From the NCBI GenBank assembly GCA_965231095.1, contig OZ246416.1, positions 677,595 through 741,594 on the forward strand: a stretch of DNA of 64,000 nucleotides, given 5' to 3'. The notes beneath the pieces were generated by a model. It saw only the letters and a list, made by a program, of their open reading frames with translations, was not told where the DNA came from and did no database searches. A program made the position numbers and the translations under genes. This DNA comes from an uncultured Gammaproteobacteria bacterium. GTDB lineage: Bacteria > Patescibacteriota > Patescibacteriia > XYB2-FULL-38-15. Of this stretch, positions 33,747 to 64,000 are shown piece by piece (positions within the stretch are counted from its first letter, which is position 1; each line of letters begins with the position of its first letter).

Positions 33747-33817
33747 CGGGGTGTAGTACAACGGTAGTATGCATGCTTTGGGAGCATGAGACCCGGGTTC
33801 AATTCCCGGCACCCCGA
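33747..33817 (+). tRNA. tRNA-Pro (TGG)
   Basis: acceptor cggggtg/caccccg, anticodon stem catgc/gcatg, loop ttTGGga. Confidence 0.85.
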
Positions 33818-43539: not shown

Positions 43540-44223
43540 TTGTTTATGAAATATTTTTTCATAAAACTCATTATAATCACTTTTGTTTTTATTTCTCTCA
43601 TTGCTCTGTGGAAGGCGCCAGTTAGCTTGGCCCTGATGAATTCGGAGAGTTATATTAACTGGATGGATTCGCTGAATTTTGGGGGAGAAGAAACCTCCAC
43701 TTCAACAAACTATAGATTCCAAGATACTTTAGGAGAGATTGGGACAGGGGAAATTTCGAGCACCAATTATGCCGGCTTGATAGGTTTTCGCCAATCTGAC
43801 GCGGATCCCAAGATGACTTTTTCCATTTCCGATACTTCAGTGGACTTTGGTACATTGTCTACGAGCGCGGTTTCTTCGGACAGCATTACGATTACAAGTA
43901 CGACAAACGCGGTGGATGGATATATTACAACAATTTTTGAAACAGAAAATTTAAAAACCGGGGCAGGTGCGGATATTGATGATGTGGCCGATGGAACAGT
44001 GACGGCCGGTTCGGAAGAATACGGTGTCAGAACTTCCGGCGCTGACGGACAGATGAACGGGGCGGACACGGGGATTACAACTTCGCCGCAAACAGTTGCT
44101 TCTAACGCGAGTTGGATAAATGGAAGCGCGGTGACAATAACTTTTAAGGCAGCAATTTCATCGCTTACGTCCGCAGGGGCTTACGCGCACAATGTCACAT
44201 TGATTTCCACCGGAAGATTTTAA
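43540..44223 (+). CDS. Secreted beta-rich surface protein, paralog A (C-terminal ...LISTGRF)
   Basis: Signal peptide; shares ANDGY/AVDGY, EE(Y/F)GV(R/S)TS and C-terminal (F/L)ISTG(T/R)F with next gene. Confidence 0.6.
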   Translation: MFMKYFFIKLIIITFVFISLIALWKAPVSLALMNSESYINWMDSLNFGGEETSTSTNYRFQDTLGEIGTGEISSTNYAGLIGFRQSDADPKMTFSISDTSVDFGTLSTSAVSSDSITITSTTNAVDGYITTIFETENLKTGAGADIDDVADGTVTAGSEEYGVRTSGADGQMNGADTGITTSPQTVASNASWINGSAVTITFKAAISSLTSAGAYAHNVTLISTGRF

Positions 44224-44254
44224 AAATTCGCAGTTTATTATTTTTTAAAAATAT

Positions 44255-45358: not shown

Positions 45359-45431
45359 TTTTTATAAAATAATGTTTTTCCCCGCGGTAATTTACGCGGA
45401 AAGAAAAACCATAATTTAAAATAGGGGGACT

Positions 45432-46532: not shown

Positions 46533-48803
46533 ATGGGGGAGTTTGTAAGAAAAAAAAGTATTGGTATTTTAATCACGGTTCTTACCCTGACAAGTTTTTT
46601 CGTTGGATTCAATCAATCTGCTGCCAGCAAACTTTCTTCGGTCAGCGACACGATGAGCAGGCAGAAAATCGGAGTATCCGCCAATCATGAAATTATTTTT
46701 ACTTTAGCCGGCGGATCGGCAGTCACGGAAAATGAAACGATTACGATTATTTTTCCGACTGGTTTTGCTTCGGGGTTAAATAGTATAGAGTGTGGTGATG
46801 TTGATTTATTGGATGATGGAGTTCAAGAAAATTTTGCGGCGTCGCCCGGATGCGCGGCGGATGCGGACGAATGGGGCGCGGCGGTCAGTACAAGGACATT
46901 GACACTTACGGCGCCGTCTACGGCCGCGACTTATATTAATGCGAGCTCAGTTGTCACTTTGCGGGTTGGAACAAATACAACAGAAGAAGGGGTAGGCAAT
47001 GCGCAGATTGTTAATCCTGGGAGCGCGGGAAGTAAGGTAATAAATATTGGGGGAACTTTTGGCGATTCAATCGAGATTGCCATTGCCATTGTGACAAATG
47101 ATCAAGCCGCGGTTATCGGGACTATTCCGACAGGCGATACTCCGGGCGGCGGTTCACCCGGGTCAGACACGACGCCGCCAATTATTTCAAATTTAAGAGT
47201 GGAAAATATTTTACAAACTTCGGCCACGGTTCTTTGGGACACAAATGAACCGGCGACTTCAAGAGTGAATTATGGCTTGACGAGTGGCTATGGATCGTCC
47301 ACTACGGGCGACGGCGGAGGATTAGTTCTTAGCCATAGAGTTGATCTGACCGGACTCACGGCAGATACAATTTATCATTTTAATGTAGTGACAGCCGATT
47401 CGCTTGGACATACAACGACTACAGTTGACGATACTTTTAGAACGCTTTCCGGCCTAGATATTACCGCTCCTGTAATTTCCAATATTCAAGTTATAAATAT
47501 TACGGAGACCGGCGCGACTGTGACATGGACAACAAATGAGCCGGCAAATTCAAAAGTAGAATATGGTTTGACCGACGCGTATGAATTGGGAGAAATAACC
47601 GCCGCGGATTTTGTGGCTTCGCATAGTTTGCCGCTCGCGGGATTAACAGGAAACACAACATATCATTTCCGCGTGACGTCGGCTGATTCTTCCGGTAATG
47701 CCGCGACTTCTCCTGACGGCACTTTTACGACAATTGCTCCGGCAGACCTGACAGCGCCAATTATTTCAAATATCAGAGTTATAAATATTACAGAAAATTC
47801 CGCGACTGTTACTTGGGACACGAATGAGGCGGCAAATTCAAGGGTGCGATATGGTTTGACGGCAACTTACGGATTGGGAAATATTTTTTCCGCCGATTTA
47901 GTTTTGGCACACAGTATAAATTTAAGTTCCTTGACTCGCAGCACAATTTATCATTTTGAAATTACTTCATCTGACAGCTCGGGGAACACGGCCGTTTCCG
48001 GAGACAGAACTTTTTCAACTTTACCGGATATAATTCCGCCGGGAAATGTGACAGATTTTTTAGCCACGCCAACTGCGGCGAGAACAATTTTATTGACCTG
48101 GGTTAATCCAACTGATACTGATTTTGCCGGAGTTTTAATTAAGAGAAGTTTTACTGGGTATCCGGCAAGTCCGGCTGACGGAGAATTAGTTTTTGACGGA
48201 GTAGCAACCTCCTTTCCCGATACAGCAATCACTCCCGCAAATTATAACCGACCAATTTACTACACAGCTTTTGCCTATGACACAACTGGAAATTTTGCTT
48301 CAGGCGCTCTGGCAGAAGCGACGATTGAAGTGTCCCTGACATTAGACGTTAAGGCCTGGCCGGAAAAAAGATGGCCGCGAAGCGGAAATTGGTCAACCAG
48401 AGGCGCGGTGGAATTGAGGGATGTGGCAACATCAAATATTTTATATGAAGATACTGTTGCGACCTCAGACCTTGGTTTGGGCTCGGTGGAATTTCCCACG
48501 GCACCGATTGTAAATTATGATATTAGCTTTAAAGGTTTGTCGCATTTAAGAAAAATTTTGCGCGACGCTCCACTTTCGGGCGGAGTAAATTCATTGGATT
48601 TTACTTTAGCAAATACTTTTTATCTTTTGGCCGGAGACGTTCATCGCTCGTCTGATAATATGGTAAACGCCCTGGATATTTCCACCCTGCTCGGTTCTCT
48701 TTCCACCGGCAACGAAGTTACTGATTTGAATCATGACACCGGAGTCAATTCTTTGGATATAAATATTTTATTGGCCAACCTGATGGTCAGGGGAGACGAA
48801 TAA
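46533..48803 (+). CDS. Secreted multidomain protein: paralog-B-like N-module, three FN3-like repeats, C-terminal dockerin
   Basis: Three ~100-aa repeats (P(V/I)ISN(L/I)(R/Q)V...TV(L/T)W(D/T)TNE...YHF.(V/I)TS(A/S)DS.GN); C-terminal SDNMVNALDISTLL and DLNHDTGVNSLDINILLANL match dockerin Ca-binding DxNxDGxVNxxD repeats. Confidence 0.7.
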   Translation: MGEFVRKKSIGILITVLTLTSFFVGFNQSAASKLSSVSDTMSRQKIGVSANHEIIFTLAGGSAVTENETITIIFPTGFASGLNSIECGDVDLLDDGVQENFAASPGCAADADEWGAAVSTRTLTLTAPSTAATYINASSVVTLRVGTNTTEEGVGNAQIVNPGSAGSKVINIGGTFGDSIEIAIAIVTNDQAAVIGTIPTGDTPGGGSPGSDTTPPIISNLRVENILQTSATVLWDTNEPATSRVNYGLTSGYGSSTTGDGGGLVLSHRVDLTGLTADTIYHFNVVTADSLGHTTTTVDDTFRTLSGLDITAPVISNIQVINITETGATVTWTTNEPANSKVEYGLTDAYELGEITAADFVASHSLPLAGLTGNTTYHFRVTSADSSGNAATSPDGTFTTIAPADLTAPIISNIRVINITENSATVTWDTNEAANSRVRYGLTATYGLGNIFSADLVLAHSINLSSLTRSTIYHFEITSSDSSGNTAVSGDRTFSTLPDIIPPGNVTDFLATPTAARTILLTWVNPTDTDFAGVLIKRSFTGYPASPADGELVFDGVATSFPDTAITPANYNRPIYYTAFAYDTTGNFASGALAEATIEVSLTLDVKAWPEKRWPRSGNWSTRGAVELRDVATSNILYEDTVATSDLGLGSVEFPTAPIVNYDISFKGLSHLRKILRDAPLSGGVNSLDFTLANTFYLLAGDVHRSSDNMVNALDISTLLGSLSTGNEVTDLNHDTGVNSLDINILLANLMVRGDE

Positions 48804-48807
48804 AGAT

Positions 48808-51435
48808 ATGAGGAGGATAATTTATACAATTGCTGCGATTGGTTTCAGTTTTCTTCTCGGCCAAGCCGCGCTTGCCGCTCGCTTTGAATTATCTCCCGCT
48901 TCAACTGGTTTTATTACCGGATGCGATTCGGCGGTGAGCATTGAAATTGATACTGAAGGAGTAACTTCTGATGCGGCAAATGTTTTGGTTCATTATGATC
49001 CAACAAAAATTGAAATAGTTGATACAAATCCATCGGCAGCCGGAATCCAAATCAGAAATGGAAATGCTTACGAGGCTTATGCTGACAATACTGTTTTGTC
49101 GGGAAGCGGAGTGATTCGCTTAACTGGATTTTCTTTTATAAGTCATCTTTCCGGCCGAGCAACTTTCGGAACAATTATTTTCCGCGGACGACCCGGAGCA
49201 GCTGATGCAAATTTCACAATTGAATATGTGGCAGGTAGCACAACCGACAGCAATATTGCCGAATATCTTACAAGTGATGACCTTTTAACCGGAGTAGGAA
49301 ACGGCGCTTACACTTTTCGCGGCGGATCGTGCGTGGCCGACGTTGTCCCACCAAATGTTTTAAACCCAACTCCCGCACCAGATGAACGCGACGTGCCGCT
49401 TGATACAAATATTACTTTTGATATTCGCGACGCTCAGTCCGGAGTTGACTTGGATACCTTAACAATAAATGTTGACGGAACAATTTATACGCGCGACGGA
49501 TTAAGCAGATTTTCTTTTGTCGGGACGCCGGCGTCCTATGCCGTGGCAATAAACCCCAACACAGATTTTATTTTAGGTTCGCCGGTGCTTGTGGAAATCA
49601 ATGCTTCTGATTTTTCCGGAAACAGCATGGCTCCGTATCGTTATATTTTTAATCAGCCGGCCGCTCCGCCGCCAGTTCCGCCATCATGCGCCGCGCTTGG
49701 TTGCGCCACTCCGACTGAATGTACCGCCGATCCGGTTTTGCCGGAAGATATTGATGAAGAACCGACCGTTCCTGAATCGCAACAACTTTCTTTCTCGGAT
49801 TTTTCTTTTTACGGCGCTGATGGAACAATCCAACTTTTACCAAATCGAAATAATGAAATAACAACTCTCGCCGGGAGCTCGGTAATTGTTTCCGCCGCGG
49901 CGAGCAAATTTCCTCGTGAGGTGGCGCGGGTCGTCATAACCCTAAACGGTCGGTCGTATCTTCTCGGTTATAATTTGACGGCAGATGCGTATCAAACAAT
50001 TTTGCAAATGCCCGCCGCCGGATTGCATTCTTCAATAATTTTGATTGATTACGCGGACGATTCGCACGATCGCGTAGAGGGCGCTTTTTCACTTTTATCC
50101 CAAGGTTTTGTTTGGCAAGGAACAACGGCAAATAAATTATCCGGCGCAACCGTCACGCTTTACGAAAGTTCTCCCGCGTCTCGCGTTTGGGATGCCGCTC
50201 TTTATCGTCAAGATAATCCAATAACAACTAATGCGTCCGGCCAATTTTCATATCTCGTTCCGTTAGGTCGTTATTATTTAGTAATTTCAAAAGAGGGCTA
50301 TCGCGACCAAACCACGCCGGTTTTTGAAGTCGCAAACAATGTTGTAAATCCGAGCGTGGAAATTCTCGTCGTCCCTCCGCCGCTTGCCGAAGTTTGGGAT
50401 CCGGCCGCGCCCGTCACGGAAAATTTACAAAATGTTATTGAAAATTTAGGCCAAAAAACAATTTACGCAAGTGAAGTTTTACAAAAAGATGTTTTGGATA
50501 ATCCGGCGGTGGAAGAAAGTACGGAAAATATTGCCGCGCCGGCCGTGGCCGCCGTGGCCGTTGTCACTTACGGCACCGCCATTTCTCTTGGTTCGCTTTT
50601 GCCATTTTTACAATTACTTTTTACCCAACCGATTTTACTTCTTTTTCCAAAACGGAGAAAAGGTTGGGGAACGGTTTATCATTCTTTATCAAAAATGCCG
50701 GTGGATTTGGCGATTGTTCGTTTGTATGAAAAAGTGACAAATCGCTTGGTGCAAACTCGCGTGACGGATAAAGAAGGGCGCTTCGCGTTTTTCGTCCAGC
50801 CCGGACAATATTTTATCAAAGTAATAAAACCCAATTTTTCTTTCCCGACAAATTTTTTGAAAAATACAAAAGAAGATGTTAAATATTTTGATCTTTATCA
50901 CGGCGAAGAAATTACCGTGACGGAAAAAAATACTCTCGTCACGCCAAACATTCCGATTGATCCGGAGGGAGAGGGGAAAATGTCGCCTGACAAAAAAGTT
51001 CTCTTTGTTCATTTTGGAAGAAAAATTCAAAACATTATCGCGCCGTTGGGAATTGTCGCCGCCACTATTTCAGTTTTGGTCTCGCCGCAAATTTGGATGG
51101 TCGCGATTTTGGCCGGACACTGTTTACTCTATGCTCTTTTCCGACGATTGGCGAGAAGTAAAAAACCAAAGAGCTGGGGAATTGTTTATGAAAGTAAAAC
51201 TAAATCTCCGGTCGGACTCACTGTCGCAAGAATTTTTGAAACCGAATACAACAAACTTTTGGAAACACAAGTGACCGACGGCCGCGGCAGATATTCATTC
51301 TTGGTCGGCTCGAACGCCTACTACGTGACTTTCAGCAAACCGGGTTTTGAACCGAAGAGAACCGAGACGGTTGATCTTCGCGGAGCAAAAGAAGGAGGAG
51401 CGGTGGGGTTGGATGTGGGGTTGGATAAAGTATAG
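48808..51435 (+). CDS. Membrane-anchored scaffold-like protein: N-terminal cohesin-like domain, Ig-like region, carboxypeptidase-regulatory-like domains, two TM segments
   Basis: Signal peptide; FELSPASTGFITGCDSAVSIEIDTEGVTSDAANVLVHYDPTKIEIVD...FGTIIFRG resembles type-I cohesin (YDPxxLEI); CarbopepD_reg-like (TVTLYESSPAS...SGQFSYLVPLGRYYLVISKEGY; VRLYEKVTNRL...GRFAFFVQPGQYFIKV); TM ~50500-50640 and ~51050-51130. Confidence 0.65.
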   Translation: MRRIIYTIAAIGFSFLLGQAALAARFELSPASTGFITGCDSAVSIEIDTEGVTSDAANVLVHYDPTKIEIVDTNPSAAGIQIRNGNAYEAYADNTVLSGSGVIRLTGFSFISHLSGRATFGTIIFRGRPGAADANFTIEYVAGSTTDSNIAEYLTSDDLLTGVGNGAYTFRGGSCVADVVPPNVLNPTPAPDERDVPLDTNITFDIRDAQSGVDLDTLTINVDGTIYTRDGLSRFSFVGTPASYAVAINPNTDFILGSPVLVEINASDFSGNSMAPYRYIFNQPAAPPPVPPSCAALGCATPTECTADPVLPEDIDEEPTVPESQQLSFSDFSFYGADGTIQLLPNRNNEITTLAGSSVIVSAAASKFPREVARVVITLNGRSYLLGYNLTADAYQTILQMPAAGLHSSIILIDYADDSHDRVEGAFSLLSQGFVWQGTTANKLSGATVTLYESSPASRVWDAALYRQDNPITTNASGQFSYLVPLGRYYLVISKEGYRDQTTPVFEVANNVVNPSVEILVVPPPLAEVWDPAAPVTENLQNVIENLGQKTIYASEVLQKDVLDNPAVEESTENIAAPAVAAVAVVTYGTAISLGSLLPFLQLLFTQPILLLFPKRRKGWGTVYHSLSKMPVDLAIVRLYEKVTNRLVQTRVTDKEGRFAFFVQPGQYFIKVIKPNFSFPTNFLKNTKEDVKYFDLYHGEEITVTEKNTLVTPNIPIDPEGEGKMSPDKKVLFVHFGRKIQNIIAPLGIVAATISVLVSPQIWMVAILAGHCLLYALFRRLARSKKPKSWGIVYESKTKSPVGLTVARIFETEYNKLLETQVTDGRGRYSFLVGSNAYYVTFSKPGFEPKRTETVDLRGAKEGGAVGLDVGLDKV

Positions 51436-51492: not shown

Positions 51493-51840
51493 ATGAATCA
51501 TTTAATCACATTTGCCAAAAATTTAAGAGAAAATTCCACTGACGCAGAGAGATTATTGTGGCACTACCTTAGAGCAAAACAATTTGGTGATTTAAAGTTT
51601 AGAAGACAGCAGATCATTGGAAAATATATCGTAGATTTTGTTTGTTTTGCTAAGAAGATTGTTATTGAACTTGATGGAAGTCAACACGCAGATGTAGATA
51701 ACAAACTAAAAGATAAAATAAGAGATAGGTGGTTAGGAAGTCAAGGATTTATTGTTCTTCGTTTTTGGGACAATGATGTTTTAAAAAATATTGAAGGAGT
51801 TTGGGGTGAAATTGAAAAGCAGTTACACCCCTCTCCCTAA
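51493..51840 (+). CDS. DUF559 endonuclease-domain protein (Vsr/restriction-endonuclease-like fold), probable selfish element
   Basis: 115 aa, ...DFVCFAKKIVIELDGSQHAD...; flanked by CCCTCCC/GGGAGGG palindromes; strong GGAGG SD unlike neighbours. Confidence 0.7.
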   Translation: MNHLITFAKNLRENSTDAERLLWHYLRAKQFGDLKFRRQQIIGKYIVDFVCFAKKIVIELDGSQHADVDNKLKDKIRDRWLGSQGFIVLRFWDNDVLKNIEGVWGEIEKQLHPSP

Positions 51841-51998: not shown

Positions 51999-54900
51999 AT
52001 GTTTAGTCCAGGAGGAGAAAAACCTAATATTGTAATTAAATCCCAAGGCGGAACCAACTTGACTCTGTTGGTGTTTGTCTTGGGTATTTTGTCATTAACG
52101 AGCGTTGGAATAATGACGCTCTCGGTCGTGGAGCAACTCCGGCCGGTGGCTTTTACGGCAATCAATAAACAACTTAATTATCAAGGCAAACTGCAAAACG
52201 CGGGGGGTATCACCCTTCCAGACGGGAATTATTCAATGAAGTTTTCCGTCTACGACGCGGCCGCGGCCGGCACGCGGCTTTGGACAGAATGCGGTACGGT
52301 CGGCACGCCAACGGCGCGAACCGTCGCGGTCGCGAACGGAGTTTTTTCGGTGCTGCTCGGCGATACGGCTTCCGGCGCTTGCCCGGGCCCGGCGAATGCC
52401 AACGCCATCACTTTGGATTTTAACAGCGACGCATATTATCTCGGTTTGACGGTTGAAGCCGACTCGGAAATGACGCCGAGAAAACGTCTCGGCGCTTCGG
52501 GCTATGCTTTTAACGCCGATTTATTGGACGGCCTTAATACTTCCGCCGCCGGCGGCTCAAACGCTTTCGTGCCGGTGACGGACGCGAGCGGCCATTTAAC
52601 TTTGACACAAAATTTAACTTTGGGCGGAGTGTTTAAAAATTCCGACGGCTCTGCCGCTTCGCCTTCCTATACTTTTACGAACGATCCCAACACAGGTTTT
52701 TATAGCGCGGCGGGAAATAATATTGGAGTCGCGGCAAATGGCGCGATGATTGCATATTTGATGGCGACGACCAATTACACTGATTCGTATTTCTATTCTC
52801 CAAGATTTATCACGCCGGCAACAACAAATTACCCGATGACTTTGACCGGAAGAATAGATGATGGAGCAGCCGCGGTCGGAGTGATTTTAGACAACTCCAC
52901 AACTTTGGCAACGGCGGGCGCGAAGATTGTCTCCTTTAAAAACAACACCACCGAAAAAGCCGCCATAGGTTTGAATGGCGAAGTTATGGCAGGGGCTGGG
53001 ACGGCTTTATTGCCCGCCCTTTCATTTTTAGGAGATCCAAATACCGGTTTTTATACCTACTCGGCAAATCAAATAGGAATCGCCAACGATGGAGGAATCA
53101 CCGGCGTCTTTTCTTCGGGTTCTCTATATATCAATTATATATTGGCGCTTTCCGGGAACACTTTAAACCTTACCGGTTCAATGGCAGACGGAGGAACGGC
53201 AGTTGGCGTGAAATTGGGTTCTTCTGTAGACCTTACAGTTGCGGGAAGTAAGATTGCTTCTTTTGTAGACAATAACACGACCGAAAAATCCGCTATTGGG
53301 CTTAATGGCGAAATAATGGCCGGAGCGGGAACAGCGTTGTTGCCTTCATTAAGTTTTCTCGGCGACCCGAATTCTGGAATGTATACTTACGCTTCCGATA
53401 CTTTGGGTTTTGCCGTAGGGGGGACAGCAGTCGGAGTCTGGGACGGCTCCACGATTTATGTTCCGGCGGTTCATCCTCTCGCTACTACGGCGTTGACTTT
53501 GAAGGGTAGGGTAGCAGACGGCGGAACCGCGGTAGGCGTGATTTTGGACAACACAACTTCCCTGACAACTGCAGGAGCAAAATTAGTTAGCATTAAAAAT
53601 GCTACAGTAGAAAAAGCATATATTGATAAGGATGGTAACGCCTACCTCCCCGGATTAAATGTTTCCGGCCTCACCGCCTCTTTAGCTGTCTACACCGACG
53701 GATCAAAAAATTTAACCTCAACCGCTCCGACTTCCGGCGCGATTGGATATTGGTCTCGCGCCACGACAACTTTGTCTCCAACAACGGCGAATGATAATAT
53801 TTCGGTTAGTTCAAATGTTACCGGAGCGGCGATTACCGGAACAGCTTCCGCCACCGGCGCGGTCATAAACTATGGCGTCTACGGCACTGCCGCAGGCAAC
53901 TCCGCCAAGGGCGTTTACGGAAGTGCCACCGCCACCGGCGCAGTGTTAAATTTCGGCGGAGATTTTTACGCGGCGGGCAATAGCGGCCAGGCCGTGCGCG
54001 GAACGGCTTCCGCCACCGGCGCGGTGACAAACTACGGCGGCGTTTTCTATGCCGCGGGTGACACGGGTTTTGGTATTGTTGCCGACGCGACATCAACTAA
54101 TGCCGGACAAAATTTTGGCGGATATTTTTATGCCAGAGGCACTACCGGCGTTGCTGTTTTTGGCAATGCCCCGGCCACCGGTGCTGTCACAAACTACGGC
54201 GGTAGTTTCCAGGCGGCGGGCAATAGCGGCCAAGCGGTGCGCGGCAATGCCACGGCCACCGGCGCGGCGGCAAACTATGGCGGCACATTTTATTCAGCGG
54301 GTAATTCCGGCGTAGCGGTTTATGGCTCGGCTTCCGCCACCGGCGCGGTCACAAACTACGGCGGGCAGTTTTATTCAGCCGGCGATACTGGTATGGCCGT
54401 TTTTGGTTACGCCACCGGCGCTGGCCTAAACTATGGCATTTATGGTTCCACAAATTCTGCCTCCGGATGGAGCGGATATTTTAACGGCGGTTTGGGTATG
54501 TATGCTTCCGCGGCGAGAATTAATTCTCTCACCGCTTCTTCCGCGGTCTATACCGACGCGTCAAAAAATTTAACTTCCACCGCTCCGACTTCCGGCGCGA
54601 TTGGATATTGGTCTCGGAGCAGTACAACATTAAGTACGGCTACAGCCGGCGACATAGTTTCTCTTTCCGGCGGTTTGAATATGAACGCGAGTCCGATTAC
54701 CGCTTCGTATATTTCCACAAATCCTTGGGGAACAAACTCGGTTGGTTCGGCAAACGGCGTGGGCCTGCAGATGAATCGGTTGCTCGGCGCGAACACCGGA
54801 CGCTATACCGTCACTTCAAGCGGCATTAATACAACCTCTGTTTTGTTTGATAATTTTTATGATTCCGCGGGAACCATTGCGGTCGGGGACACGGGCGTTA

Positions 54901-57900
54901 TTACAGTTGATTTTAATCCTCAACTTGCTTGGACAGCCAGCACGGCAACAGGTTTTGTTTATCAGAACGGAATAATTGTAATGAGTTTTTATAATACAGT
55001 TATACCGACCGACGTGACAGTGGAAGTTTATAGATGTTCGCCAAACGTTGATTGCGCGGCCGGGACAGGAACTGACGCTTGGGTGACGATTTACAGCACA
55101 ACAACCAACGATAAAAATCCTTTGGTTATCAGCCCGACTCCGTCTGTCAATTATATTAAGAGAATAAGATTTACTTTTGCCGATGGCGATCCGACTTATG
55201 GTTCATGGATTTCTGAATTGGAATGGTTTCCGACTCGTGACGCTTCGGCAAACCAATTGGCTGTTCTTCCAAAATATTTCAACCAAAGCCTAGACGTTTC
55301 CTGGACGAGTTGGAATATGAAAAAAGTTGCCGACTGGAGCACGACCGCGACAATTTCAAACGCCGGCGCGGCGTATTTTGCCGGACCGGTTGGTGTAAAT
55401 GATGCCGGACCCGACGCTTCTTTGGAAGTTGTAAATGACGGCTCGGGGGATTCTTTCTTGGTCGCCGATACTAATGATGGAGATGCTACGCCATTTGTGA
55501 TTCAAGCAGATGGGGATGTTGGTATTGGAACAGCGGCACCAGCTGCTTTATTACACATAGCAAAAGACTCAACATACAATAGTGAGGCAGCGGCAGGCAT
55601 AAAAATAACTGATTCAACTTTAACTGATACTGGTCTTCTTTTGGGCGCCGACGCGACAAACGATATTGCCTACATCCAATCAATGGATCCGGGAACGGGT
55701 TACACTAGGGCGCTTTCAATAAATCCTAATGGCGGAATGACAAGATTATTTATGAACAGGGGCGCAGCGGCTGGAACAGGTATTTCTTGGTATTTACCAA
55801 CTTTTACGGCGTGGGCGGAATACATGGCTCAGGCGACGCAAACCCTAGCCGGTCCGACGGCAAACATTACTGCTCCTTCGGGAACGATTGTTACCTCGTG
55901 GGCACTCAGAAGTTTTATTGAAAATGCCTCTAATTACGGTTGGACTTTTGAATCGGGAACATCAACTGGTCAGCCGAGTGTAGTGGCGGAAATTAGATCT
56001 AGCGACGGAACAATCAGATCAAATACTAGCGTTCTCGCTGCCGTGAGTATGGGCATCGGCGACGATACCCCCGACGCTTCTTTGGAAGTTGTGAACGACG
56101 GTTCGGGAGATTCGTTCTTGGTCGCCGATACAAATGATGGCGACGCTACGCCTTTTGTAATTGACCCCGACGGAGATGTTGGCATTGGAACAACAGGACC
56201 TCTCACTAAATTTCATGTAAATAGCGCGAATACATTAACCGGTTCTTATCATCAGGCCGTGATAACCTCAAGTGATACGGCGGCGATTGATAAGGGCGGG
56301 TCAATTGGTTTTGGCGGAGCTTATACGGGAACAACCCTGACACAGTGGGCGGGCATCTCGGGAAGAAAGGAAAATGTGACGGCCGGAAATTATGCCGGCT
56401 ATCTTGCTTTGGAAACAAGAGCAAATGGTGGAAATCTTACGGAACAAGTGCGTATTGATTCCGCGGGAAGTGTTGGTATTGGAACAACCGGACCGGACAG
56501 AAAATTGGATGTGTTGGCCGCCTCAAGCCCGCAATTGCGTTTGACTCAAGTTGACAATACCACTTACGCAGATTTTCAAGTTGATTCCAACGGTGATTTG
56601 ATAATGAATGTTGATGGCATCTCAAGCCAACTGGTTTTAGATAATGGCGGGAATATCGGGATTGGAACCGCGGCGCCGGCCGGGGCCTTGGATATAGTTT
56701 CCGCAAACGCCCCCACCTTGCGTCTCGCGACGAACGCGACCGACGCTACGGTTAAATACGGGTATGTCGCTTCTCGCCATTATACGAATGCCGAGCAAGA
56801 TCTTATGGTATTTATGAGTGGAAGTTCCGCCACGGAAAATAGCATTCGTTTGGGCGGAGGATCAGGATCTTTTAATGCGACAAATAGAATATCTTTTTAT
56901 ACGGCCGCGGATCAAATAACTTTGGACGGAACCGAAAGAATGAAGATAGATTCATCGGGCAACATTTGGATAAATTCTCTTGACGCCTCTTCAATCGTCT
57001 ACACTGACGCTTCAAAAAATTTAACTTCAACTCCTCCGGGTGCGGGAACGATCGGATATTGGTCTCGAGGTGGGACGACTTTATCTCCGGCGACGGCGAA
57101 TGATGTGGTTTCCGTTTCGGGCACTGGCGCGACAGCGATTACCGGCACAAGTTCAGCCGCGGGAGGCAAAGGAATTTATGGCACAGCGACCGACGCGACT
57201 GCTGTTGCAAATTACGGAGTTTATGGAACAGCCGCTGGGACAGGAGCTCTTTCTGCCGGCGTTTACGGCGTAGCTTCGGGCGCGGCGAATTCCGTTACCG
57301 GCGTATATGCTGAGGCTTCGAATACGGGCGCTTATGAAAATTACGGCGGAGCCTTTTTTGCGCGGGGAGAGACCGGCGTCGGCATCTACGGCGAAGGAGT
57401 TTCTACTGCCGCGGCTGTAAATTACGGCGGAAAATTTTCTGCTCATGGTAAGGCCACTGGTTCAGCCGCTGTTTACGGTGCGGCGCCCGAGGCCGGAGCG
57501 TTCACAAGTTATGGCGGATATTTTACGACAGTTAGCGATACCGGCAGAGGTGTTTACGGCTCGGCTACGGCTTCCGGCGCAGTCACAAACTACGGCGGAT
57601 ATTTTACCTCGGCCGGAACAGGCATTCTGACAAGTGGTGTTTACGGAGAAGCTTCTGGCGCGGCAAATAATATCGCAGGAATTTATGGCAAGGCGTCAAA
57701 TACAGGGGCTTATACAAATTTCGGCGGGGTGTTTTACGCCGCCGGAGAAACGGGCATTGGTATTCGCGGTGAGGCTACTTCCACCGCGGCGGCCATAAAT
57801 TTTGGCGCAAAGTTTTACGCGAATGGCGCAGCATCAGGTACGGCTGGCGTTTATGGACAAGGCGTTGATACCACTGCCATCGTTAATTATGGAGGATATT

Positions 57901-60900
57901 TTAATGCAAGAGGAACCGCTACCGGAGCAAGCGGTGTTTATGGAGAAGCAAGCGGCGCGGGCGCGGTTTACGGAGTTTATGGAAACGCTTCAGCCACCGG
58001 CGCAGTCACAAACTACGGCGGCGTTTTTTACGCCGCAGGTGATTCCGGCAGAGGTCTCTATAGTAACGCCACCGCCACCGGCGCGGTCACAAACTACGGC
58101 GGTTATTTTTCCGCCGCGGGTAATTCCGGCGCTGGTATTTACGGCACGGCCACCGCCACCGGCGCGATCACAAATTACGGCGGCGTTTTTTACGCCGCGG
58201 GTGATTCCGGCGCTGGCGTGTACGGCACGGCGACGTCTACTACGGGGACAAATTTCGGCGGATATTTTATTGCGGCCGGAACGGGTAGCGATACGGCCGG
58301 GGTTTATGGTTCATCTACCGGCACAGGAGGGACCAAAGCGCTCTATGGCGGGCGTTTTATCGCGGCAGGGGCGGTTACGGGAACAGCCGGCGTTTACGGT
58401 TCGGCGTCCGGCGCGGGAACGGTTTATGGCGTTCAGGGAAATGCTTCGGACACCGGCGCGGTGACAAATTATGGCGGATATTTTACGGCGGCGGGCGATA
58501 CCGGTCGCGGCGTCTACGGCGCGGCAACCGACTCGGGTGCGGTTGCAAATTACGGCGGATATTTTACAGCCGCGGGGACAAGCAGTGCGTCCGGAATTTA
58601 TGCTGAAGCAACGGGCGCAGGTCTGGTTAGCGGTGTTTATGGGTTAGCTAGTGACGCGACTGCCGGAACAGCTAATTTTGGAGGGTATTTTGAAGCTAGG
58701 GGTCCTCACAGCTGGAGTTATGGAGTCAAAGGTTATATTCCGAATAGCGTTGGTGGCAAAGCCGTTTGGGGCCACGCCGCGGAAACAACTTCAACAAATT
58801 ACGGAGGTTATTTTAAAGCGGATGGCGCGGGTGCCGCGGCGGCTGGTGTTTATGGCTGGGCTTCGGGGGCGGCCGCGGTCTACGGCGTTCAGGGGTATGC
58901 TTCAGATGCTACCGCCGTGACAAACTATGGCGGGTATTTTTCTGGTGGCGGGCAAACCGGGCGCGGGGTTTATGGTTCGGCCACTTATACTGGTGCGACG
59001 ACAAATTATGGTGGATTTTTTGAAGCGGCTGGAACTTCTTTCGCGACGGGCGTTTATGGCCGAGCGACTGGGGCGGGCACGGTCTACGGTGTTCAGGGAA
59101 TCGCAAGCGACACCACTGCTGTGACAAACTATGGCGGATATTTTATAGGATGGGGAGATACGGGATATGGTGTTTACGGCGAAGCGGGAGATACCGGCGC
59201 GGGCGCAAACTACGGCGGATATTTTAAGGGAAGAGGGAGCGGAGGAGCTTACGGGGTTTATGCTCTTGCTGACGCGGCATCCGGAACAAACTATGCTGTT
59301 TATGGCAACGTAACTTCTTCAACCGGTTACGGCGGTTATTTTACCGGCGGTTATGGACTTTACGGAAGCCGCGGACAAATTGCTAGAGCGCCGAGCGGTA
59401 ATGATACTTCTTATGCCCTGGTTGTTGAGGGCGCGGTTTGTATTGATGATAGTTCGGCAAATTGTCCGAGTACGCCAACTTCGGGCACGCTTTATACTGA
59501 AGGCGCGGCTTTGCAAACTTTTGACTTAGCCGAACTTTATGAATCAACCGAAGCGCTCGCGGCAGGTGATGTGGTAAGTGTTGATACCGGTAGCGCGAGA
59601 AAAATAGTGAAGTCAACCGAAGCATATCAAAATACAACAATGGGAGTTATTTCTACCGCTCCGGGTATTACTTTGGGCGGATGGAGCGCCGGACCAAATC
59701 AATATCCGGTGGCTTTGGCTGGCCGCGTGCCGGTAAAAGTGAGCGATGAAAATGGACCGATCGCGATCGGCGATATTTTAACTTCGTCTTCTACAACAGG
59801 CGTGGCAATGAAAGCAACTCGTCCGGGACAAAAAATCGGCGTGGCGCTTGAAGCGTGGAGCGGAACGGGCGTTGGAGTTCTTGAAGTATTTATGGCCCCC
59901 GGCTGGGATTCTGCCGGAACAATTGCCACTGATGGCACAGCAATTTTCTTGAATGATACTTTTACTTTTAATAAATTGGATACTGCGGATAATATTATTC
60001 AGGGGTATGGTTCAAAAGGTTTGTCTTTCCGCGGATCAGGATGGGACGGCACGGCAGGGCAAAATGTTGAAATGAAACTTTTGAGTAAAGTTACTGACGC
60101 GACAAATTATAAACTCGCAGTTTTAAATAATGCGGGTGAAGAAGTGGCTTATGTTGGAGGAGATGGATCGTTTGGAGTTACCGGAAAATTTTATCCGGCG
60201 GCAACGACCGGAGCGCAAACTGACGCGTATATTTTCTATGCCGCAAATTATATGCGAACCAATGCTGATGGTTGGTCAACCGGTTCGTTTGATTTCGCGG
60301 AAATGTTTTTGTCGCACGAGTTGCTCGAAGCCGGCGACATTGTCACGCTTGATGAAGCAACAAATGAGTATGTTAAAAAATCAGTCGCGGCTTATGATAA
60401 TATGGCGCTTGGTATTGTTTCCACAAAACCGGGATTTTTAGCCGGAACAAACGTTGACTTTAATAATCCTTCGGCAGACCAAGGGTATCCGATTGCCTTA
60501 GCCGGACGCGTGCCGACCAAGGTTTCCGCGGAAAACGGGCCGATTCGTCCGGGCGACTTTTTAACAACTTCCGCGACCTCGGGGGTAGCGATGAAGGCGA
60601 CCGAGTCGGGAATGATTTTGGGCACGGCGCTTGAAAGTTTTGACGGGCAGGGAATCGGGCTGGTAAAAGTTTTTGTAAATTTATCTTGGTACAACGTGGC
60701 AAGCGAATCAACACCGGTTGGTGAAATGGCGCAGCTCACGTTGACGGGCGATTTGAACATGGCGGGAAATTATATTTTAAATGTTGGGAAAATTGTCGGG
60801 GTGGATGAAAAATGGAGTATTGATGAAAATGGAATTTTGAAAGTGAAATTGATAGCGGAAGACGCGAGCGAGAAAGAAATGTTTGGATTGACTTCGGCCA

Positions 60901-61355
60901 AAGTGGAATTGACATTGTCCGGTACCGGTCGATTGGAAAATGGCACGAGCATGATTGATTTAAGTTTAATTGATCCTGATTTTGCCAAAAATATTTCCGC
61001 GGAAACACCGATAAAAGTGATAGTCACCTTAACTGAACCTGCGAATGGTATATATGTCGCGGAAAAATCCGCTTATGGTTTCCGAGTGGCGGAATTGAAT
61101 GCCGGAACAACGGACGCGGCGTTTGATTGGATTGTTATTGCGAGAAGAAAAGGATATGAAGATGTGTTGGCTGGCGGCGAGGTTCCTCTCCCGAGCGAAC
61201 CGGCGCCAAGCGCGCCCGCTCCGTCAGAACCCGTGCCTTCCGAGCCGGCACCAGAAGTTCCTCCGAGCGAACCGCCTCCGGAAGTTCCTCCGTCAGAACC
61301 GGCACCAAGCGAGACGCCTCCTCCAGAGCCAGCACCGACAGAGCCCACGCCATAG
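51999..61355 (+). CDS. Giant (3118 aa) N-terminally membrane-anchored cell-surface fibre/adhesin-like protein with ~27-aa Gly-rich repeat arrays, tail-fibre-like xVGIGTxxP motifs, duplicated C-terminal beta modules and Pro-rich tail
   Basis: TM anchor LTLLVFVLGILSLTSVGIMTL; repeats consensus TGAVTNYGGYF.AAGDSG.GVYG.A.A (blocks ~53810-54480 and ~57120-59345); duplicated 125-bp segment 55420-55545/56075-56200; duplicated ~110-aa modules ~59520-59900 and ~60290-60650; PxxPSEP tail. Confidence 0.8.
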   Translation: MFSPGGEKPNIVIKSQGGTNLTLLVFVLGILSLTSVGIMTLSVVEQLRPVAFTAINKQLNYQGKLQNAGGITLPDGNYSMKFSVYDAAAAGTRLWTECGTVGTPTARTVAVANGVFSVLLGDTASGACPGPANANAITLDFNSDAYYLGLTVEADSEMTPRKRLGASGYAFNADLLDGLNTSAAGGSNAFVPVTDASGHLTLTQNLTLGGVFKNSDGSAASPSYTFTNDPNTGFYSAAGNNIGVAANGAMIAYLMATTNYTDSYFYSPRFITPATTNYPMTLTGRIDDGAAAVGVILDNSTTLATAGAKIVSFKNNTTEKAAIGLNGEVMAGAGTALLPALSFLGDPNTGFYTYSANQIGIANDGGITGVFSSGSLYINYILALSGNTLNLTGSMADGGTAVGVKLGSSVDLTVAGSKIASFVDNNTTEKSAIGLNGEIMAGAGTALLPSLSFLGDPNSGMYTYASDTLGFAVGGTAVGVWDGSTIYVPAVHPLATTALTLKGRVADGGTAVGVILDNTTSLTTAGAKLVSIKNATVEKAYIDKDGNAYLPGLNVSGLTASLAVYTDGSKNLTSTAPTSGAIGYWSRATTTLSPTTANDNISVSSNVTGAAITGTASATGAVINYGVYGTAAGNSAKGVYGSATATGAVLNFGGDFYAAGNSGQAVRGTASATGAVTNYGGVFYAAGDTGFGIVADATSTNAGQNFGGYFYARGTTGVAVFGNAPATGAVTNYGGSFQAAGNSGQAVRGNATATGAAANYGGTFYSAGNSGVAVYGSASATGAVTNYGGQFYSAGDTGMAVFGYATGAGLNYGIYGSTNSASGWSGYFNGGLGMYASAARINSLTASSAVYTDASKNLTSTAPTSGAIGYWSRSSTTLSTATAGDIVSLSGGLNMNASPITASYISTNPWGTNSVGSANGVGLQMNRLLGANTGRYTVTSSGINTTSVLFDNFYDSAGTIAVGDTGVITVDFNPQLAWTASTATGFVYQNGIIVMSFYNTVIPTDVTVEVYRCSPNVDCAAGTGTDAWVTIYSTTTNDKNPLVISPTPSVNYIKRIRFTFADGDPTYGSWISELEWFPTRDASANQLAVLPKYFNQSLDVSWTSWNMKKVADWSTTATISNAGAAYFAGPVGVNDAGPDASLEVVNDGSGDSFLVADTNDGDATPFVIQADGDVGIGTAAPAALLHIAKDSTYNSEAAAGIKITDSTLTDTGLLLGADATNDIAYIQSMDPGTGYTRALSINPNGGMTRLFMNRGAAAGTGISWYLPTFTAWAEYMAQATQTLAGPTANITAPSGTIVTSWALRSFIENASNYGWTFESGTSTGQPSVVAEIRSSDGTIRSNTSVLAAVSMGIGDDTPDASLEVVNDGSGDSFLVADTNDGDATPFVIDPDGDVGIGTTGPLTKFHVNSANTLTGSYHQAVITSSDTAAIDKGGSIGFGGAYTGTTLTQWAGISGRKENVTAGNYAGYLALETRANGGNLTEQVRIDSAGSVGIGTTGPDRKLDVLAASSPQLRLTQVDNTTYADFQVDSNGDLIMNVDGISSQLVLDNGGNIGIGTAAPAGALDIVSANAPTLRLATNATDATVKYGYVASRHYTNAEQDLMVFMSGSSATENSIRLGGGSGSFNATNRISFYTAADQITLDGTERMKIDSSGNIWINSLDASSIVYTDASKNLTSTPPGAGTIGYWSRGGTTLSPATANDVVSVSGTGATAITGTSSAAGGKGIYGTATDATAVANYGVYGTAAGTGALSAGVYGVASGAANSVTGVYAEASNTGAYENYGGAFFARGETGVGIYGEGVSTAAAVNYGGKFSAHGKATGSAAVYGAAPEAGAFTSYGGYFTTVSDTGRGVYGSATASGAVTNYGGYFTSAGTGILTSGVYGEASGAANNIAGIYGKASNTGAYTNFGGVFYAAGETGIGIRGEATSTAAAINFGAKFYANGAASGTAGVYGQGVDTTAIVNYGGYFNARGTATGASGVYGEASGAGAVYGVYGNASATGAVTNYGGVFYAAGDSGRGLYSNATATGAVTNYGGYFSAAGNSGAGIYGTATATGAITNYGGVFYAAGDSGAGVYGTATSTTGTNFGGYFIAAGTGSDTAGVYGSSTGTGGTKALYGGRFIAAGAVTGTAGVYGSASGAGTVYGVQGNASDTGAVTNYGGYFTAAGDTGRGVYGAATDSGAVANYGGYFTAAGTSSASGIYAEATGAGLVSGVYGLASDATAGTANFGGYFEARGPHSWSYGVKGYIPNSVGGKAVWGHAAETTSTNYGGYFKADGAGAAAAGVYGWASGAAAVYGVQGYASDATAVTNYGGYFSGGGQTGRGVYGSATYTGATTNYGGFFEAAGTSFATGVYGRATGAGTVYGVQGIASDTTAVTNYGGYFIGWGDTGYGVYGEAGDTGAGANYGGYFKGRGSGGAYGVYALADAASGTNYAVYGNVTSSTGYGGYFTGGYGLYGSRGQIARAPSGNDTSYALVVEGAVCIDDSSANCPSTPTSGTLYTEGAALQTFDLAELYESTEALAAGDVVSVDTGSARKIVKSTEAYQNTTMGVISTAPGITLGGWSAGPNQYPVALAGRVPVKVSDENGPIAIGDILTSSSTTGVAMKATRPGQKIGVALEAWSGTGVGVLEVFMAPGWDSAGTIATDGTAIFLNDTFTFNKLDTADNIIQGYGSKGLSFRGSGWDGTAGQNVEMKLLSKVTDATNYKLAVLNNAGEEVAYVGGDGSFGVTGKFYPAATTGAQTDAYIFYAANYMRTNADGWSTGSFDFAEMFLSHELLEAGDIVTLDEATNEYVKKSVAAYDNMALGIVSTKPGFLAGTNVDFNNPSADQGYPIALAGRVPTKVSAENGPIRPGDFLTTSATSGVAMKATESGMILGTALESFDGQGIGLVKVFVNLSWYNVASESTPVGEMAQLTLTGDLNMAGNYILNVGKIVGVDEKWSIDENGILKVKLIAEDASEKEMFGLTSAKVELTLSGTGRLENGTSMIDLSLIDPDFAKNISAETPIKVIVTLTEPANGIYVAEKSAYGFRVAELNAGTTDAAFDWIVIARRKGYEDVLAGGEVPLPSEPAPSAPAPSEPVPSEPAPEVPPSEPPPEVPPSEPAPSETPPPEPAPTEPTP
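53810..59345 (+). repeat. Coding tandem repeat arrays (81-bp / 27-aa Gly-rich units, >30 copies in two blocks) inside giant gene
   Basis: Recurrent aactacggcgg(a/c)tattttac...gccgcgggtgattccggc... units. Confidence 0.8.
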
Positions 61356-61397: not shown

Positions 61398-61849
61398 AAT
61401 CCAAAATCTAAATTTCAAATGTCAAACCAAGCCCAAAATCCAAATGATAAAAAGAAATATGATCTCGAGGAAAGAACAGCGAAGTTTGGCGAGGACATCA
61501 TAAAATTTGCCTGCGCTTTATCCGCCACACCGGTTAATCGACCATTAATCAGTCAAATTGTCCGTTCGGGCACGAGCGTCGGAGCAAATTACATGGAAGC
61601 CGACGGTGCTGAATCTAAAAAAGATTTCCATCATAAAATCGGCATTTGTAAAAAAGAATCGAAAGAGACAATGCATTGGTTTAGAATGATTGCTATGGCA
61701 AACCCGACGAAGAAAGATGAGTGTCGCAATCTTTGGAAAGAAGCCCACGAACTTTCTTTAATCTTTTCGGCGATTATTAGAAAGAAAAAGCAATTTGGAT
61801 TTTAGGTTTGGGATTTGGTTTGGCCTTTGGATTTTGACATTTGGGTTTT
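61398..61849. mobile_element. Four-helix-bundle gene cassette bounded by ~45-bp imperfect inverted repeats built of CCAAAAT-like units (61398-61446 / 61801-61849)
   Basis: revcomp(61801-61849)=aaaacccaaatgtcaaaatccaaaggccaaaccaaatcccaaacctaaa versus 61398-61446 aaatccaaaatctaaatttcaaatgtcaaaccaagcccaaaatccaaat. Confidence 0.55.
61419..61805 (+). CDS. Four-helix-bundle protein (rRNA intervening-sequence-type protein family)
   Basis: 128 aa; TAKFGEDIIKF...RSGTSVGANYMEA...KKDFHHKIGICKKESKETMHWF pattern typical of this family. Confidence 0.7.
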   Translation: MSNQAQNPNDKKKYDLEERTAKFGEDIIKFACALSATPVNRPLISQIVRSGTSVGANYMEADGAESKKDFHHKIGICKKESKETMHWFRMIAMANPTKKDECRNLWKEAHELSLIFSAIIRKKKQFGF

Positions 61850-62066
61850 ACAAATAGCAAATTGTAAGCGAGTTGTGCCTTCGGGTACGGGTCATAACTC
61901 GTATATAATATCAACTCCCCACCGCAAGGTGAGGAGTTGTTGTATTCAATTAAATATTTTTATTTTTTGTGGTATAATATATGAAAGAGGAGGATTAGTG
62001 GATAAGCTGAAGAAAGAGAAAAAAACAGAGAAAAACAAAATTTAATATAAATACATAAGTTTTTCT

Positions 62067-64000
62067 TATGTTTGACAAAGTTTCCAAGGTAGAAAAAGAA
62101 AATAACCCCGGAGGTTATTGTTTGCGGAGGAAGAAGAGTAATTTACGCCCTCTAGTTTTGATTTTGGGTTTTTTTGCCATGGCGAGCCTTGGGGTTATTG
62201 CTTTTGCCTTATTGCAAAAATGGAACGTGCCAGCTTCCGCCGCTCCGGGAATTTATAAAACTTTAAATTATCAAGGAAAGTTAGAAGACGCGGACGGCGT
62301 GACGGTCGCCGACGGGGCGTACAACATTAAATTTACAATTTACGACGCGGCCGCGGTTGGAAACGTTTTGTGGACAGCGCGCGAATCAGATGCTTGCGGC
62401 GCGGCTTTTAACCCATCGGCAAAATCTGTCACAACCTCGCTCGGAGTTTTTTCCACGCAACTTGGCGAGTCTGGGGACTGTCCAATAAATTTGGATTTTA
62501 ATGACGACTCATATTATTTGGGCATAACAGTTGGCGCGGATTCAGAAATGACGCCGCGGAAAAGGCTTGGCGCGGCCGGTTATGCTTTTAATGCAGATCT
62601 TTTAGATGGTCTTAATACTTCTGCGGTGGGTGGCGCTTCGGCTTTTGTCCCGGCGACTGATTCGTCCGGGAATTTGGTTTTGACCGGTAACATTACTTTC
62701 GATACCACAACTTTTTACCTTGATTCCGCAAACGATAATATTGGTATTGGCACTGTGGCGCCGGAGATCTTTCGCACCGTGGATTTAGTAACAGCAAAAA
62801 AATACGGAGTTTACGCTTCATCAAGTTCGGCCGTAAATCATATGGCGGTAATTTACGCGGAAGCGACAGATACGACAAACATTAATCAAATGGGCGGATC
62901 TTTTTCTGTGGCAAGTCCGAGCGGTAAGGGTGTTTTGGGTACAGCCATCACGTCAGGGAATCCTCTCGTTGCAAATTACGGTGGATATTTTACCGCGGCA
63001 GGCGATTCCGGAGTCGGCGTTTATGGCGAAGCATCGGCGAGCGGCGTTGGTCTTACTAATTACGGTGGCTCTTTTACAGCAAACGGCGATACGGGTCGCG
63101 GCGTTTACGGCTTGGCCATTGCAACAGATGGGGTAAATTACGGCGGAAATTTTAGAGCGAATGGAGCGGGCGGATACGGCGTTTACGGTTTGGCTGCGAG
63201 CGCGGCTGCTACCGCAAATTACGGCGGATATTTCAAGGCGGCGGGTCAGGGCGCGTATGGCGCTTATGGTTGGGCTTCAAATACCGCAGTAGCAAATTAC
63301 GGCGGATATTTTAAATCAGATGGCGCAGGCGGCTACGCTGTTTATGGAACAGCAACCGACGCGACGGCGGCAACTAATTACGGAGGATATTTTTTGGCGG
63401 CGGGTCAGGGTGGTTATGGCGCTTATGGTTACGCGAGTGAGGCGACGATAGTAAACACCGGTGTTTATGGGCAGGCCGACGGTCCGGCCGGATATGGCGT
63501 CTATGGCTACGCGGCAAATGTGGCCGGCGGAAATTATGGTGGATATTTTTTGGGTGCCGCTGCGGCGAGTTATGGCGCTTATGGAAAAGCAACGGGCACT
63601 GGCGGCTACGGCGTTTATGGCTGGGCTTCAAATACTGCGGCAACAAATTATGGAGGATATTTTAAATCAGACGGAGCGGGCGGCTACGGGGTTTACGCTT
63701 CAGCCACCGACGTTACAGCTGTTGTAAATTACGGAGGATTTTTTCAAGCCAATGGGCGGGGCGGAATAGGCGTTTACGGCGCTGCCCCTGACTCCACGGC
63801 CTTAGCAGTAAATTTTGGAGGCTACTTTGTTACGAACGGAGTCGGCACGGGGTCAGCCGGAGTTTATGGACAAGCATCAGGGGCAGGGACAGTGGCCGGT
63901 GTTTATGGACTTGCCGCTGACAGCGCCGGAGGCACGGCAAATTACGGAGGATTTTTTCAAGCCAATGGACAGGGCGGCGCGCGCGGTGTTTATGGTAAAG
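62067..64000 (+). CDS. Second giant surface fibre-like protein (paralog of 51999-61355), 3' end beyond window
   Basis: ATG 62067; TM anchor LVLILGFFAMASLGVIAF; shared N-module LNYQGKLEDADGVTVADGAYNIKFTIYDAAAVGNVLW...PRKRLGAAGYAFNADLLDGLNTSA; then NIGIGTVAPE and 27-aa Gly-rich repeats; absent from ORF track because no stop in window. Confidence 0.75.

Follow-up and report, generated by a model that had tools for sequence, protein, structure and literature searches.

A giant modular protein with parts of the phage-tailspike type as a candidate cell-surface fibre of a Patescibacteria bacterium

What is a protein of 3118 residues, assembled from repeats and tail-fibre-like modules, for on the chromosome of a Patescibacteria bacterium? 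The question is posed by a single intact open reading frame (ORF) in contig OZ246416.1, which we followed up within a window of 64 kb (the whole stretch of DNA analysed, 64,000 nucleotides). An exact-sequence look-up of the protein returned no record. We propose, with a probability of roughly 0.65, that the gene encodes a giant secreted fibre on the surface of the bacterium that carries it, with the N terminus at the cell and a body made of phage-tailspike parts.

The C-terminal region carries a duplicated module (residues 2501–2636 versus 2757–2897, 49% identity), for which a first-pass annotation of the sequence had suggested a length of ~110 residues and either an NfeD-like or an IMC-type fold. 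The duplication stands, the length is ~140–150 residues, and of the two candidates the IMC type was borne out and NfeD was not. A profile of 31 such modules matched chains of gp12, the pre-neck appendage of phage phi29, with E values of 1.8e-4 to 3e-3 (PDB 6qz9, 1.8e-4; 3gqh, 2.8e-4), and the module fold agrees with that of the released gp12 auto-chaperone. Homologous modules in four relatives (P0045, P0079, P0082 and P0086) scored 32–37 bits against PF11962 (Peptidase_G2, IMC autoproteolytic cleavage domain), above its 25-bit cut-off, in matches that cover only profile positions ~43–100 of 228, the first ~55 residues of the module. Across the 31 aligned modules, the D, A and E of a D-x-A-E motif (D25, A27 and E28) are identical in all modules or in at least 90% of them. 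The motif aligns to DFAE in gp12, in which the chain of the released chaperone (3gqh) has this Asp as its first residue and uncleaved 3suc reads DFAQ, with Glu replaced by Gln. Judged from these comparisons, the duplicated module is a homolog of the phi29 gp12 auto-chaperone. Folding and trimerisation of the beta-helical gp12 appendage depend on the C-terminal domain, which is later cleaved off (PMC3357383, PMC4690869).

Residues 2460–2960, used as a query, matched 802 proteins, mostly from the candidate phyla radiation (CPR), with the tandem module present in 54 of 120 among the matches listed. The domain that follows the second module (C-terminal domain, CTD) had no match in Pfam, NCBIfam or PHROGs. 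Peptidase_S74 (PF13884), the chaperone of many other fibres, was absent from the window protein in a Pfam search and was found only in repeat- or IMC-bearing relatives.

The same motif bears on the principal competing explanation, in which the IMC-like modules would be permanent, uncleaved trimeric beta-tulip clamps, as in phage cement or decoration proteins, and the CTD with its Pro-rich tail would form a functional distal tip or a wall-spanning segment. We regard this arrangement as unlikely, given that both module types keep D-x-A-E, with conservation that is complete or at least 90%, and that the motif coincides in the alignment with the gp12 cleavage site and catalytic Glu.

At the other end of the protein, a Kyte–Doolittle scan identified one hydrophobic segment, the only one in the chain, which could be a signal peptide or an N-terminal membrane anchor. 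It is followed by a module (N-module) with 43 homologs; classical signal peptides immediately precede the module in homologs. Many of these proteins are 250–340 residues long and consist of signal peptide, N-module and varied C-terminal tips, the phage tail Collar domain PF07484 among them. NCBIfam NF053851 (Bdello_MAT_N) was matched by 38 of 45 members of the N-module family, with a best E value of 7.7e-12, and the N-module profile had no significant match among PDB sequences. Together with the score of the window protein itself (below), this indicates that the N-module is, at the level of sequence, a distant relative of the Bdello_MAT_N domain rather than a member of the Bdellovibrio subfamily.

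A paralog downstream, starting at 62068 rather than the 62067 first reported, shares the N-module, with 54% identity over residues 19–208. It had been described as diverging afterwards, and simple divergence does not hold, as it carries at least 14 units of the same 27-residue repeat as the giant protein. Complete orthologs of the paralog have 804 and 848 residues and run from the N-module through 10–14 such units to a single terminal IMC module. The intergenic stretch ahead of the paralog contains a strong hairpin on the minus strand (61912–61939; 12-bp stem, 7 G–C pairs), possibly a terminator that acts in both directions or a regulatory element.

Between the two ends runs a chain of cassettes (Table 1). 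From protein self-comparison and module searches, the order from the N terminus is hydrophobic segment, N-module, three ~110-residue repeats (R110), linker, eight 27-residue units, linker and a unique domain (U), followed by GIGT modules, linker, ~25 further 27-residue units, IMC module 1, spacer, IMC module 2, CTD and Pro-rich tail. Residues 206–560 and the GIGT region (residues 1128–1710) match PHROG tail-fibre families with E values down to 3e-14, in keeping with the xVGIGTxxP tail-fibre motifs noted at first pass, of which there are four (residues 1174, 1394, 1492 and 1553). Single segments of the protein searched against PDB sequences gave no significant matches. The linker, a module of ~60 residues in three copies that had gone unnoticed, flanks each cassette and contains the longest DNA stretch repeated exactly within 12 kb, 38 nt shared by the copies on either side of the first 27-residue block (53721–53758 and 54579–54616), making it a plausible recombination junction for cassette duplication or exchange. 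Domain U had no family or PDB match and occurs in only some orthologs; it would be a candidate ligand-binding insert.

Table 1. Positions, in the window, of the giant gene, its modules and the paralog.
Feature	Position	Strand	Residues	Remarks
Giant fibre gene (candidate)	51999–61355	+	1–3118	intact ORF, 3118 aa
Hydrophobic segment	52050–52136	+	18–46	signal peptide or N-terminal membrane anchor; Kyte–Doolittle
N-module	52161–52583	+	55–195	NYQGKL...DSEMTPRKRL...YAFNADLLDG; shared with paralog
R110	52647–53660	+	217–554	three tandem ~110-aa repeats, phage virion/tail-fibre-like
Linker copy 1	53631–53810	+	545–604	LTAS.AVYTD.SKNLTSTAP.SGAIGYWSR
27-aa repeat block 1	53850–54503	+	618–835	8 units
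Linker copy 2	54489–54668	+	831–890	
Unique domain U	54669–55379	+	891–1127	
GIGT-motif modules	55380–56978	+	1128–1660	tail-fibre-like
Linker copy 3	56955–57119	+	1653–1707	
27-aa repeat block 2	57162–59348	+	1722–2450	~25 units, some extra half-length inserts
IMC module 1	59481–59933	+	2495–2645	phi29 gp12-type auto-chaperone (by homology)
IMC 1 motif	59523–59534	+	2509–2512	D-L-A-E
Spacer domain	59934–60263	+	2646–2755	between IMC modules; conserved in orthologs
IMC module 2	60255–60716	+	2753–2906	
IMC 2 motif	60291–60302	+	2765–2768	D-F-A-E
CTD	60711–61184	+	2905–3062	conserved; no known family
Pro-rich tail	61185–61352	+	3063–3118	PSEPAP; also in orthologs
Paralog	62068–64000	+		N-module, one GIGT motif, at least 14 27-aa units; runs off window

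Parts of this kind would also suit a phage or prophage tail-fibre or tailspike gene, possibly domesticated, that serves virion adsorption; the PHROG matches, the gp12-type chaperone and weak matches to the IMC module in PA5oct-like jumbo Pseudomonas phages all point that way. We nevertheless consider such a role very improbable. The window belongs to a Patescibacteria chromosome and not to a phage. It contains a 16S rRNA gene (31625–33159), seven tRNAs, DNA polymerase III delta, RmuC and a DNA polymerase I split into a 5'-3' exonuclease gene (36343–37257) and a separate PolA polymerase gene (37282–39063), and the locus lies beyond these genes for rRNA, tRNAs and replication. Among the flanking ORFs scanned, none was seen to encode a capsid, terminase or tail protein. 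A seven-gene neighbourhood is shared between the window and an independent Patescibacteria genome, and the protein opens with a signal or anchor and a MAT-type domain that would sit close to the cell. Finally, the 27-residue repeat had zero matches in 50,697 GenBank phages or in IMG/VR.

In a scan of one genome per species, two syntenic loci were recovered, L001 from a Patescibacteria metagenome-assembled genome (MAG) and L002 from Candidatus Falkowbacteria; the L002 protein shares 74–78% amino acid identity with the window protein at both ends. Homologs of the N- and C-terminal regions are overwhelmingly from Patescibacteria (Uhr-, Magasanik-, Parcu- and Woesebacteria). As the closest loci and most homologs of both protein ends are from this group, the host is a CPR bacterium close to Candidatus Falkowbacteria.

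Comparison of orthologs bears out the module shuffling proposed at first pass. Syntenic or near-identical-ended orthologs of 1894–2953 residues keep the N-module–R110 start and the IMC–spacer–IMC–CTD–Pro-rich end, and they differ in middle cassettes and in the number of 27-residue units, which ranges from ~9 to 26 across the related genomes. L001_A (2412 residues) has a middle of linker, a segment left unassigned, linker and 26 units; L002_A (1894 residues) has two R110 repeats, GIGT modules and nine units; P0223 (2214 residues) has runs of six and eight; and P0185 (2953 residues) follows the cassette order of the window protein with 13 units in block 2. These giant relatives come from the genome scan and a search of representative sequences, the protein homolog listing being confined to entries of up to ~1.75 times the query length. 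Conserved ends with exchangeable middle cassettes would let a lineage vary both the length and the specificity of its fibre.

Duplication is also visible within the gene. A stretch described as a nearly exact 125-bp duplication proved to be 123 nt long and 86.2% identical (55410–55532 versus 56070–56192); 15 of its 17 mismatches sit in third codon positions, and the stretch is therefore no more than a duplicated piece of coding sequence under purifying selection. It was also considered as a target of a diversity-generating retroelement (DGR), a candidate we rejected on the grounds that the mismatches are of mixed types, not A-specific, and mostly synonymous. No pair of template and variable repeats was found in the window, and no other long near-repeats tie intergenic regions to the gene; the ORFs were not exhaustively scanned for a reverse transcriptase. 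Between the giant gene and the paralog lies a gene (61419–61805, plus strand) for a 128-residue 23S_rRNA_IVP protein (PF05635, E = 4.7e-15), of a family that includes the DGR protein Avd, whose presence had prompted the DGR idea; it is not at that position in L001 or L002.

The 27-residue repeat, rich in Gly, Ala and Tyr, accounts for two blocks of the shaft. NYGG-type anchors recur every 27 residues in both, with occasional spacings of 41–43 residues in block 2. A hidden Markov model (HMM) built from 16 units matched 33 times, in 27 cases at near full length (28 matches with stringent settings), in agreement with the earlier count of more than 30 tandem units. Identity at lag 27 was 0.508 in block 1 and 0.286 in block 2, against 0.127±0.024 and 0.133±0.013 in shuffled sequences (12–16 standard deviations above the shuffles), and was at background in a non-repeat control region. 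Lags of 13, 14, 26 and 28 were at background within the repeat blocks, which thus have no 14-residue periodicity. The consensus of 14 exact-length units is A-T-G-A-V-T-N-Y-G-G-Y-F-Y-A-A-G-D-S-G-x-G-V-Y-G-x-A-T, with A4, G9 and A26 invariant. Neither the whole protein nor ten segments of it produced a match for the repeat blocks in Pfam, NCBIfam or PHROGs.

Block 1 was also scanned exhaustively with HMMER against 1.84 billion representatives. The scan yielded 578 clusters at E≤1e-3, of which 211 reached E≤1e-10 and 26 reached E≤1e-30. Among the best 150 matches were 145 newly returned proteins, of which 81 carry the N-module and 38 a gp12-like IMC module; they have a median of 6 and a maximum of 19 units per protein, compared with 28 in the window protein at the same settings. 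In Sumerlaeota and Ignavibacteriae, phyla distinct from Patescibacteria, what follows the repeat is an S74 chaperone or an IMC-like domain.

At the DNA level, the 81-bp units reported earlier were recovered by Tandem Repeats Finder (period 81 nt at 54162–54388 and 57993–58231) and, as 81-nt spacings, by a repeat search. Identity between units ranges from 44% to 85% (mean 61%), and the array is an old one that has diverged. With so little identity between units and a longest exact repeat of only 38 nt, it offers few openings for collapse during assembly, and the assembly hazard raised at first pass is low. That the extreme repeat number results from collapse or expansion during assembly is accordingly, in our estimation, highly improbable, even though all available genomes are short-read MAGs and many homologs are cut off at contig ends (in L002, the contig begins 215 nt ahead of the gene); the reading frame runs uninterrupted for 9.4 kb, and independent assemblies yield complete genes with different but orderly arrays.

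An AlphaFold2 model of residues 545–895, with an input alignment of internal copies and database homologs, was strictly regular, of low confidence, and had three strands per 27-residue unit. The predicted strands are VTNY, YFxAA and xGVYGxA, separated by predicted Gly-rich corners at GG, G-D/N-S-G and T-A-T-G-A; the linkers were modelled as disordered. At its low confidence, the model supports a view of each unit as one three-stranded coil of a parallel beta-helix. With a rise of 4.8 Å per coil, the 33 units would add only ~16 nm, so that most of the fibre length would come from other modules. The earlier idea of a beta-roll or beta-helix stalk related to YadA is therefore kept in its first half, as a beta-solenoid, and dropped in its second, since the model is regular and three-stranded, a 14-residue periodicity is missing and Hep_Hag matches were not found. 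For the same reasons, a trimeric-autotransporter-like adhesin with a left-handed beta-roll head can be all but set aside, despite its Gly-rich short repeats, fibrous adhesin-like layout and a weak, below-threshold NCBIfam match to BimA in the Pro-rich tail: the C terminus is IMC–spacer–IMC–CTD–Pro-rich tail, with no match to a YadA-type anchor.

The proposed surface fibre would be made as follows. The hydrophobic N terminus would direct Sec export and may stay behind as an anchor, leaving the ~140-residue, beta-rich, MAT-like N-module next to the cell. The shaft would extend outwards as a cassette chain of ~110-residue repeats, GIGT modules, the unique domain and the two runs of 27-residue repeats. 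By analogy with gp12, the two C-terminal chaperones would nucleate trimerisation and folding of the preceding beta-helix and would then cut themselves off before the Asp of D-x-A-E, at F2508|D2509 and possibly at F2764|D2765. The mature fibre would bind surface glycans or proteins of the host cell that bears the episymbiont; the giant protein is thus probably a host-attachment adhesin.

Several points weigh against this proposal. The IMC modules of the window protein itself had no Pfam match at E≤1 and none in NCBIfam or PHROGs, the whole protein had no Pfam match, and its N-module reached only 20.5 bits against Bdello_MAT_N (E = 3.2e-4), below the cut-off of 60. In the repeat model, the predicted local distance difference test (pLDDT) is 58–66 within the repeats and pTM is 0.53; being of a monomer, it leaves handedness, and a single-chain versus an intertwined triple beta-helix, indistinguishable. 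Two chaperones in tandem, with another domain and a Pro-rich tail behind them, are without characterised precedent, and maturation may differ from that of gp12. Loss of everything C-terminal of D2509 would leave the end of the beta-helix as the tip, with no recognisable binding domain. The architecture, the homologies, the IMC fold, the conservation of its motif, the synteny and the cassette variation were observed; trimerisation, cleavage, surface exposure, adhesive role and ligand are predicted.

The genes around the locus offer further observations. The region 43540–64000 looks like one cell-surface gene cluster. Two large predicted surface proteins adjoin the giant gene upstream: one of 756 residues with fn3 and purple-acid-phosphatase-N-like domains (46533–48803, plus strand; syntenic with L001 4989–7256), and one of 875 residues with CarboxypepD_reg/SdrD_B-like domains (48808–51435, plus strand; syntenic with L001 7275–9914). 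Further upstream, three conserved ORFs (43540–46454, plus strand; syntenic with L001 1982–4830) comprise two secreted proteins of 227 and 367 residues that end in ...(L/F)ISTG(R/T)F and a 340-residue protein that combines a signal peptide and a C-terminal transmembrane helix with a weak WxLIP_PGBD/DUF916-like domain (E = 0.0024). In layout, these three resemble pilin subunits and a membrane-anchored chaperone, as in the CPR Pam pilus (bioRxiv 10.64898/2026.03.03.709456). A DUF559 gene (Vsr/MTES_1575-type endonuclease-like; 51493–51840, plus strand) lies just 5' of the giant gene. In L001, the interval from the end of a gene of 879 residues (9914) to the start of the giant ortholog (10001) is too short for such a gene, so that the DUF559 gene is probably a small mobile or selfish insertion. 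A promoter and terminator scan gave counts near those of shuffled sequence.

Elsewhere in the window (31625–33817), tRNA-Ile, tRNA-Phe and tRNA-Pro come after the 16S rRNA gene; a 23S rRNA gene is lacking in the 64 kb, and the rRNA operon is unlinked. Two inverted near-repeats (1466–1508 versus 13531–13489, 43 nt, 93%; 13517–13592 versus 15069–14985, 76–85 nt, 81%) flank ORFs of 1037 residues (10321–13434) and 462 residues (13607–14995), and a stretch of low GC content (0.33) spans 14001–16000.

Among the closest known systems is phi29 gp12, the Bacillus phage pre-neck appendage or tailspike (PF11962; PDB 3gq7, 3gqh, 3suc and 6qz9), with its cleavage motif S691|D692-F-A-E695, to which DLAE at 2509–2512 and DFAE at 2765–2768 correspond. 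The window protein differs in being cellular, in bearing a signal or anchor and in being 3.6 times longer. Its module is shorter (~140 versus 163 residues) and occurs twice in tandem with a spacer, before an extra domain and a Pro-rich tail. Its predicted beta-helix is formed by a regular 27-residue sequence repeat, no enzymatic site was identified, and its cleavage is predicted only.

A second likeness is to the mosaic adhesive trimer (MAT) fibres of Bdellovibrio bacteriovorus, which are phage-like trimeric adhesins (Caulton et al. 2024, PMC10769870). Like MATs, the window protein has a conserved beta-rich N-domain, of ~130 residues in MATs, directly after the export signal, a long modular phage-like body and chaperone or exchangeable modules at the far end; several paralogs share the N-domain, as the one at 62068 does here, and the organism lives by contact with other bacteria. 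By contrast, its N-domain match is distant, its chaperone is of the G2/gp12 type instead of S74, it is ~3 times the size of a MAT (~1000 residues), the 27-residue beta-helix repeat is undescribed for MATs, and the lineage is Patescibacteria. Peptidase_S74 fibres, such as K1F endosialidase, T5 pb1 and bacterial 'tail fiber domain-containing proteins', rely on the same principle, in which a trimerisation chaperone at the C terminus cleaves itself, and in S74 proteins of Sumerlaeota and others the same repeat precedes the S74 domain; the window protein has no S74 domain, and its chaperone fold and catalytic motif differ. The beta-helical passengers of autotransporters and two-partner secretion (TPS) systems (Vag8, Fap2, EtpA, pertactin) and curli-like solenoids share no sequence relationship with it, and it has neither a beta-barrel translocator nor a TPS domain; at the low confidence of the model, the likeness is one of predicted shape.

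The component ideas are already known, namely mosaic trimeric fibres of the phage type in bacteria and auto-chaperones of the gp12 type. Not described in the libraries and literature searched are the 27-residue beta-helix repeat (which has no entry in Pfam, NCBIfam or PHROGs), the tandem IMC–spacer–IMC–CTD–Pro-rich cassette, and their union with a MAT-like N-domain in giant Patescibacteria proteins. A bolder and rather doubtful extension is that an uncurated family of host-attachment fibres exists in Patescibacteria and other ultrasmall or contact-dependent bacteria, combining a MAT-type domain, 27-residue beta-helix and tandem gp12-type chaperones, in which two-step maturation would free a trimeric IMC–spacer–IMC–CTD–Pro-rich product with a function of its own and exchange of cassettes at the linker module would set host range; if true, such fibres would be the cellular counterpart of phage tail-fibre evolution in episymbionts. 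For uncultivated Patescibacteria, little has been established about host recognition and attachment apart from type IV pili and some unnamed adhesins (PMC11665869, PMC10633639). The locus supplies a specific candidate for an adhesin by which CPR bacteria attach to hosts: its cleavage site is predicted, its repeat is defined and cassette variants occur naturally among syntenic genomes. Curation of the repeat family and of the CPR-wide tandem IMC module as new families could improve the annotation of many 'hypothetical' giant proteins. The locus would also extend the MAT concept, phage-like mosaic fibres of bacteria that live on bacteria, to a distant lineage and a different type of chaperone.

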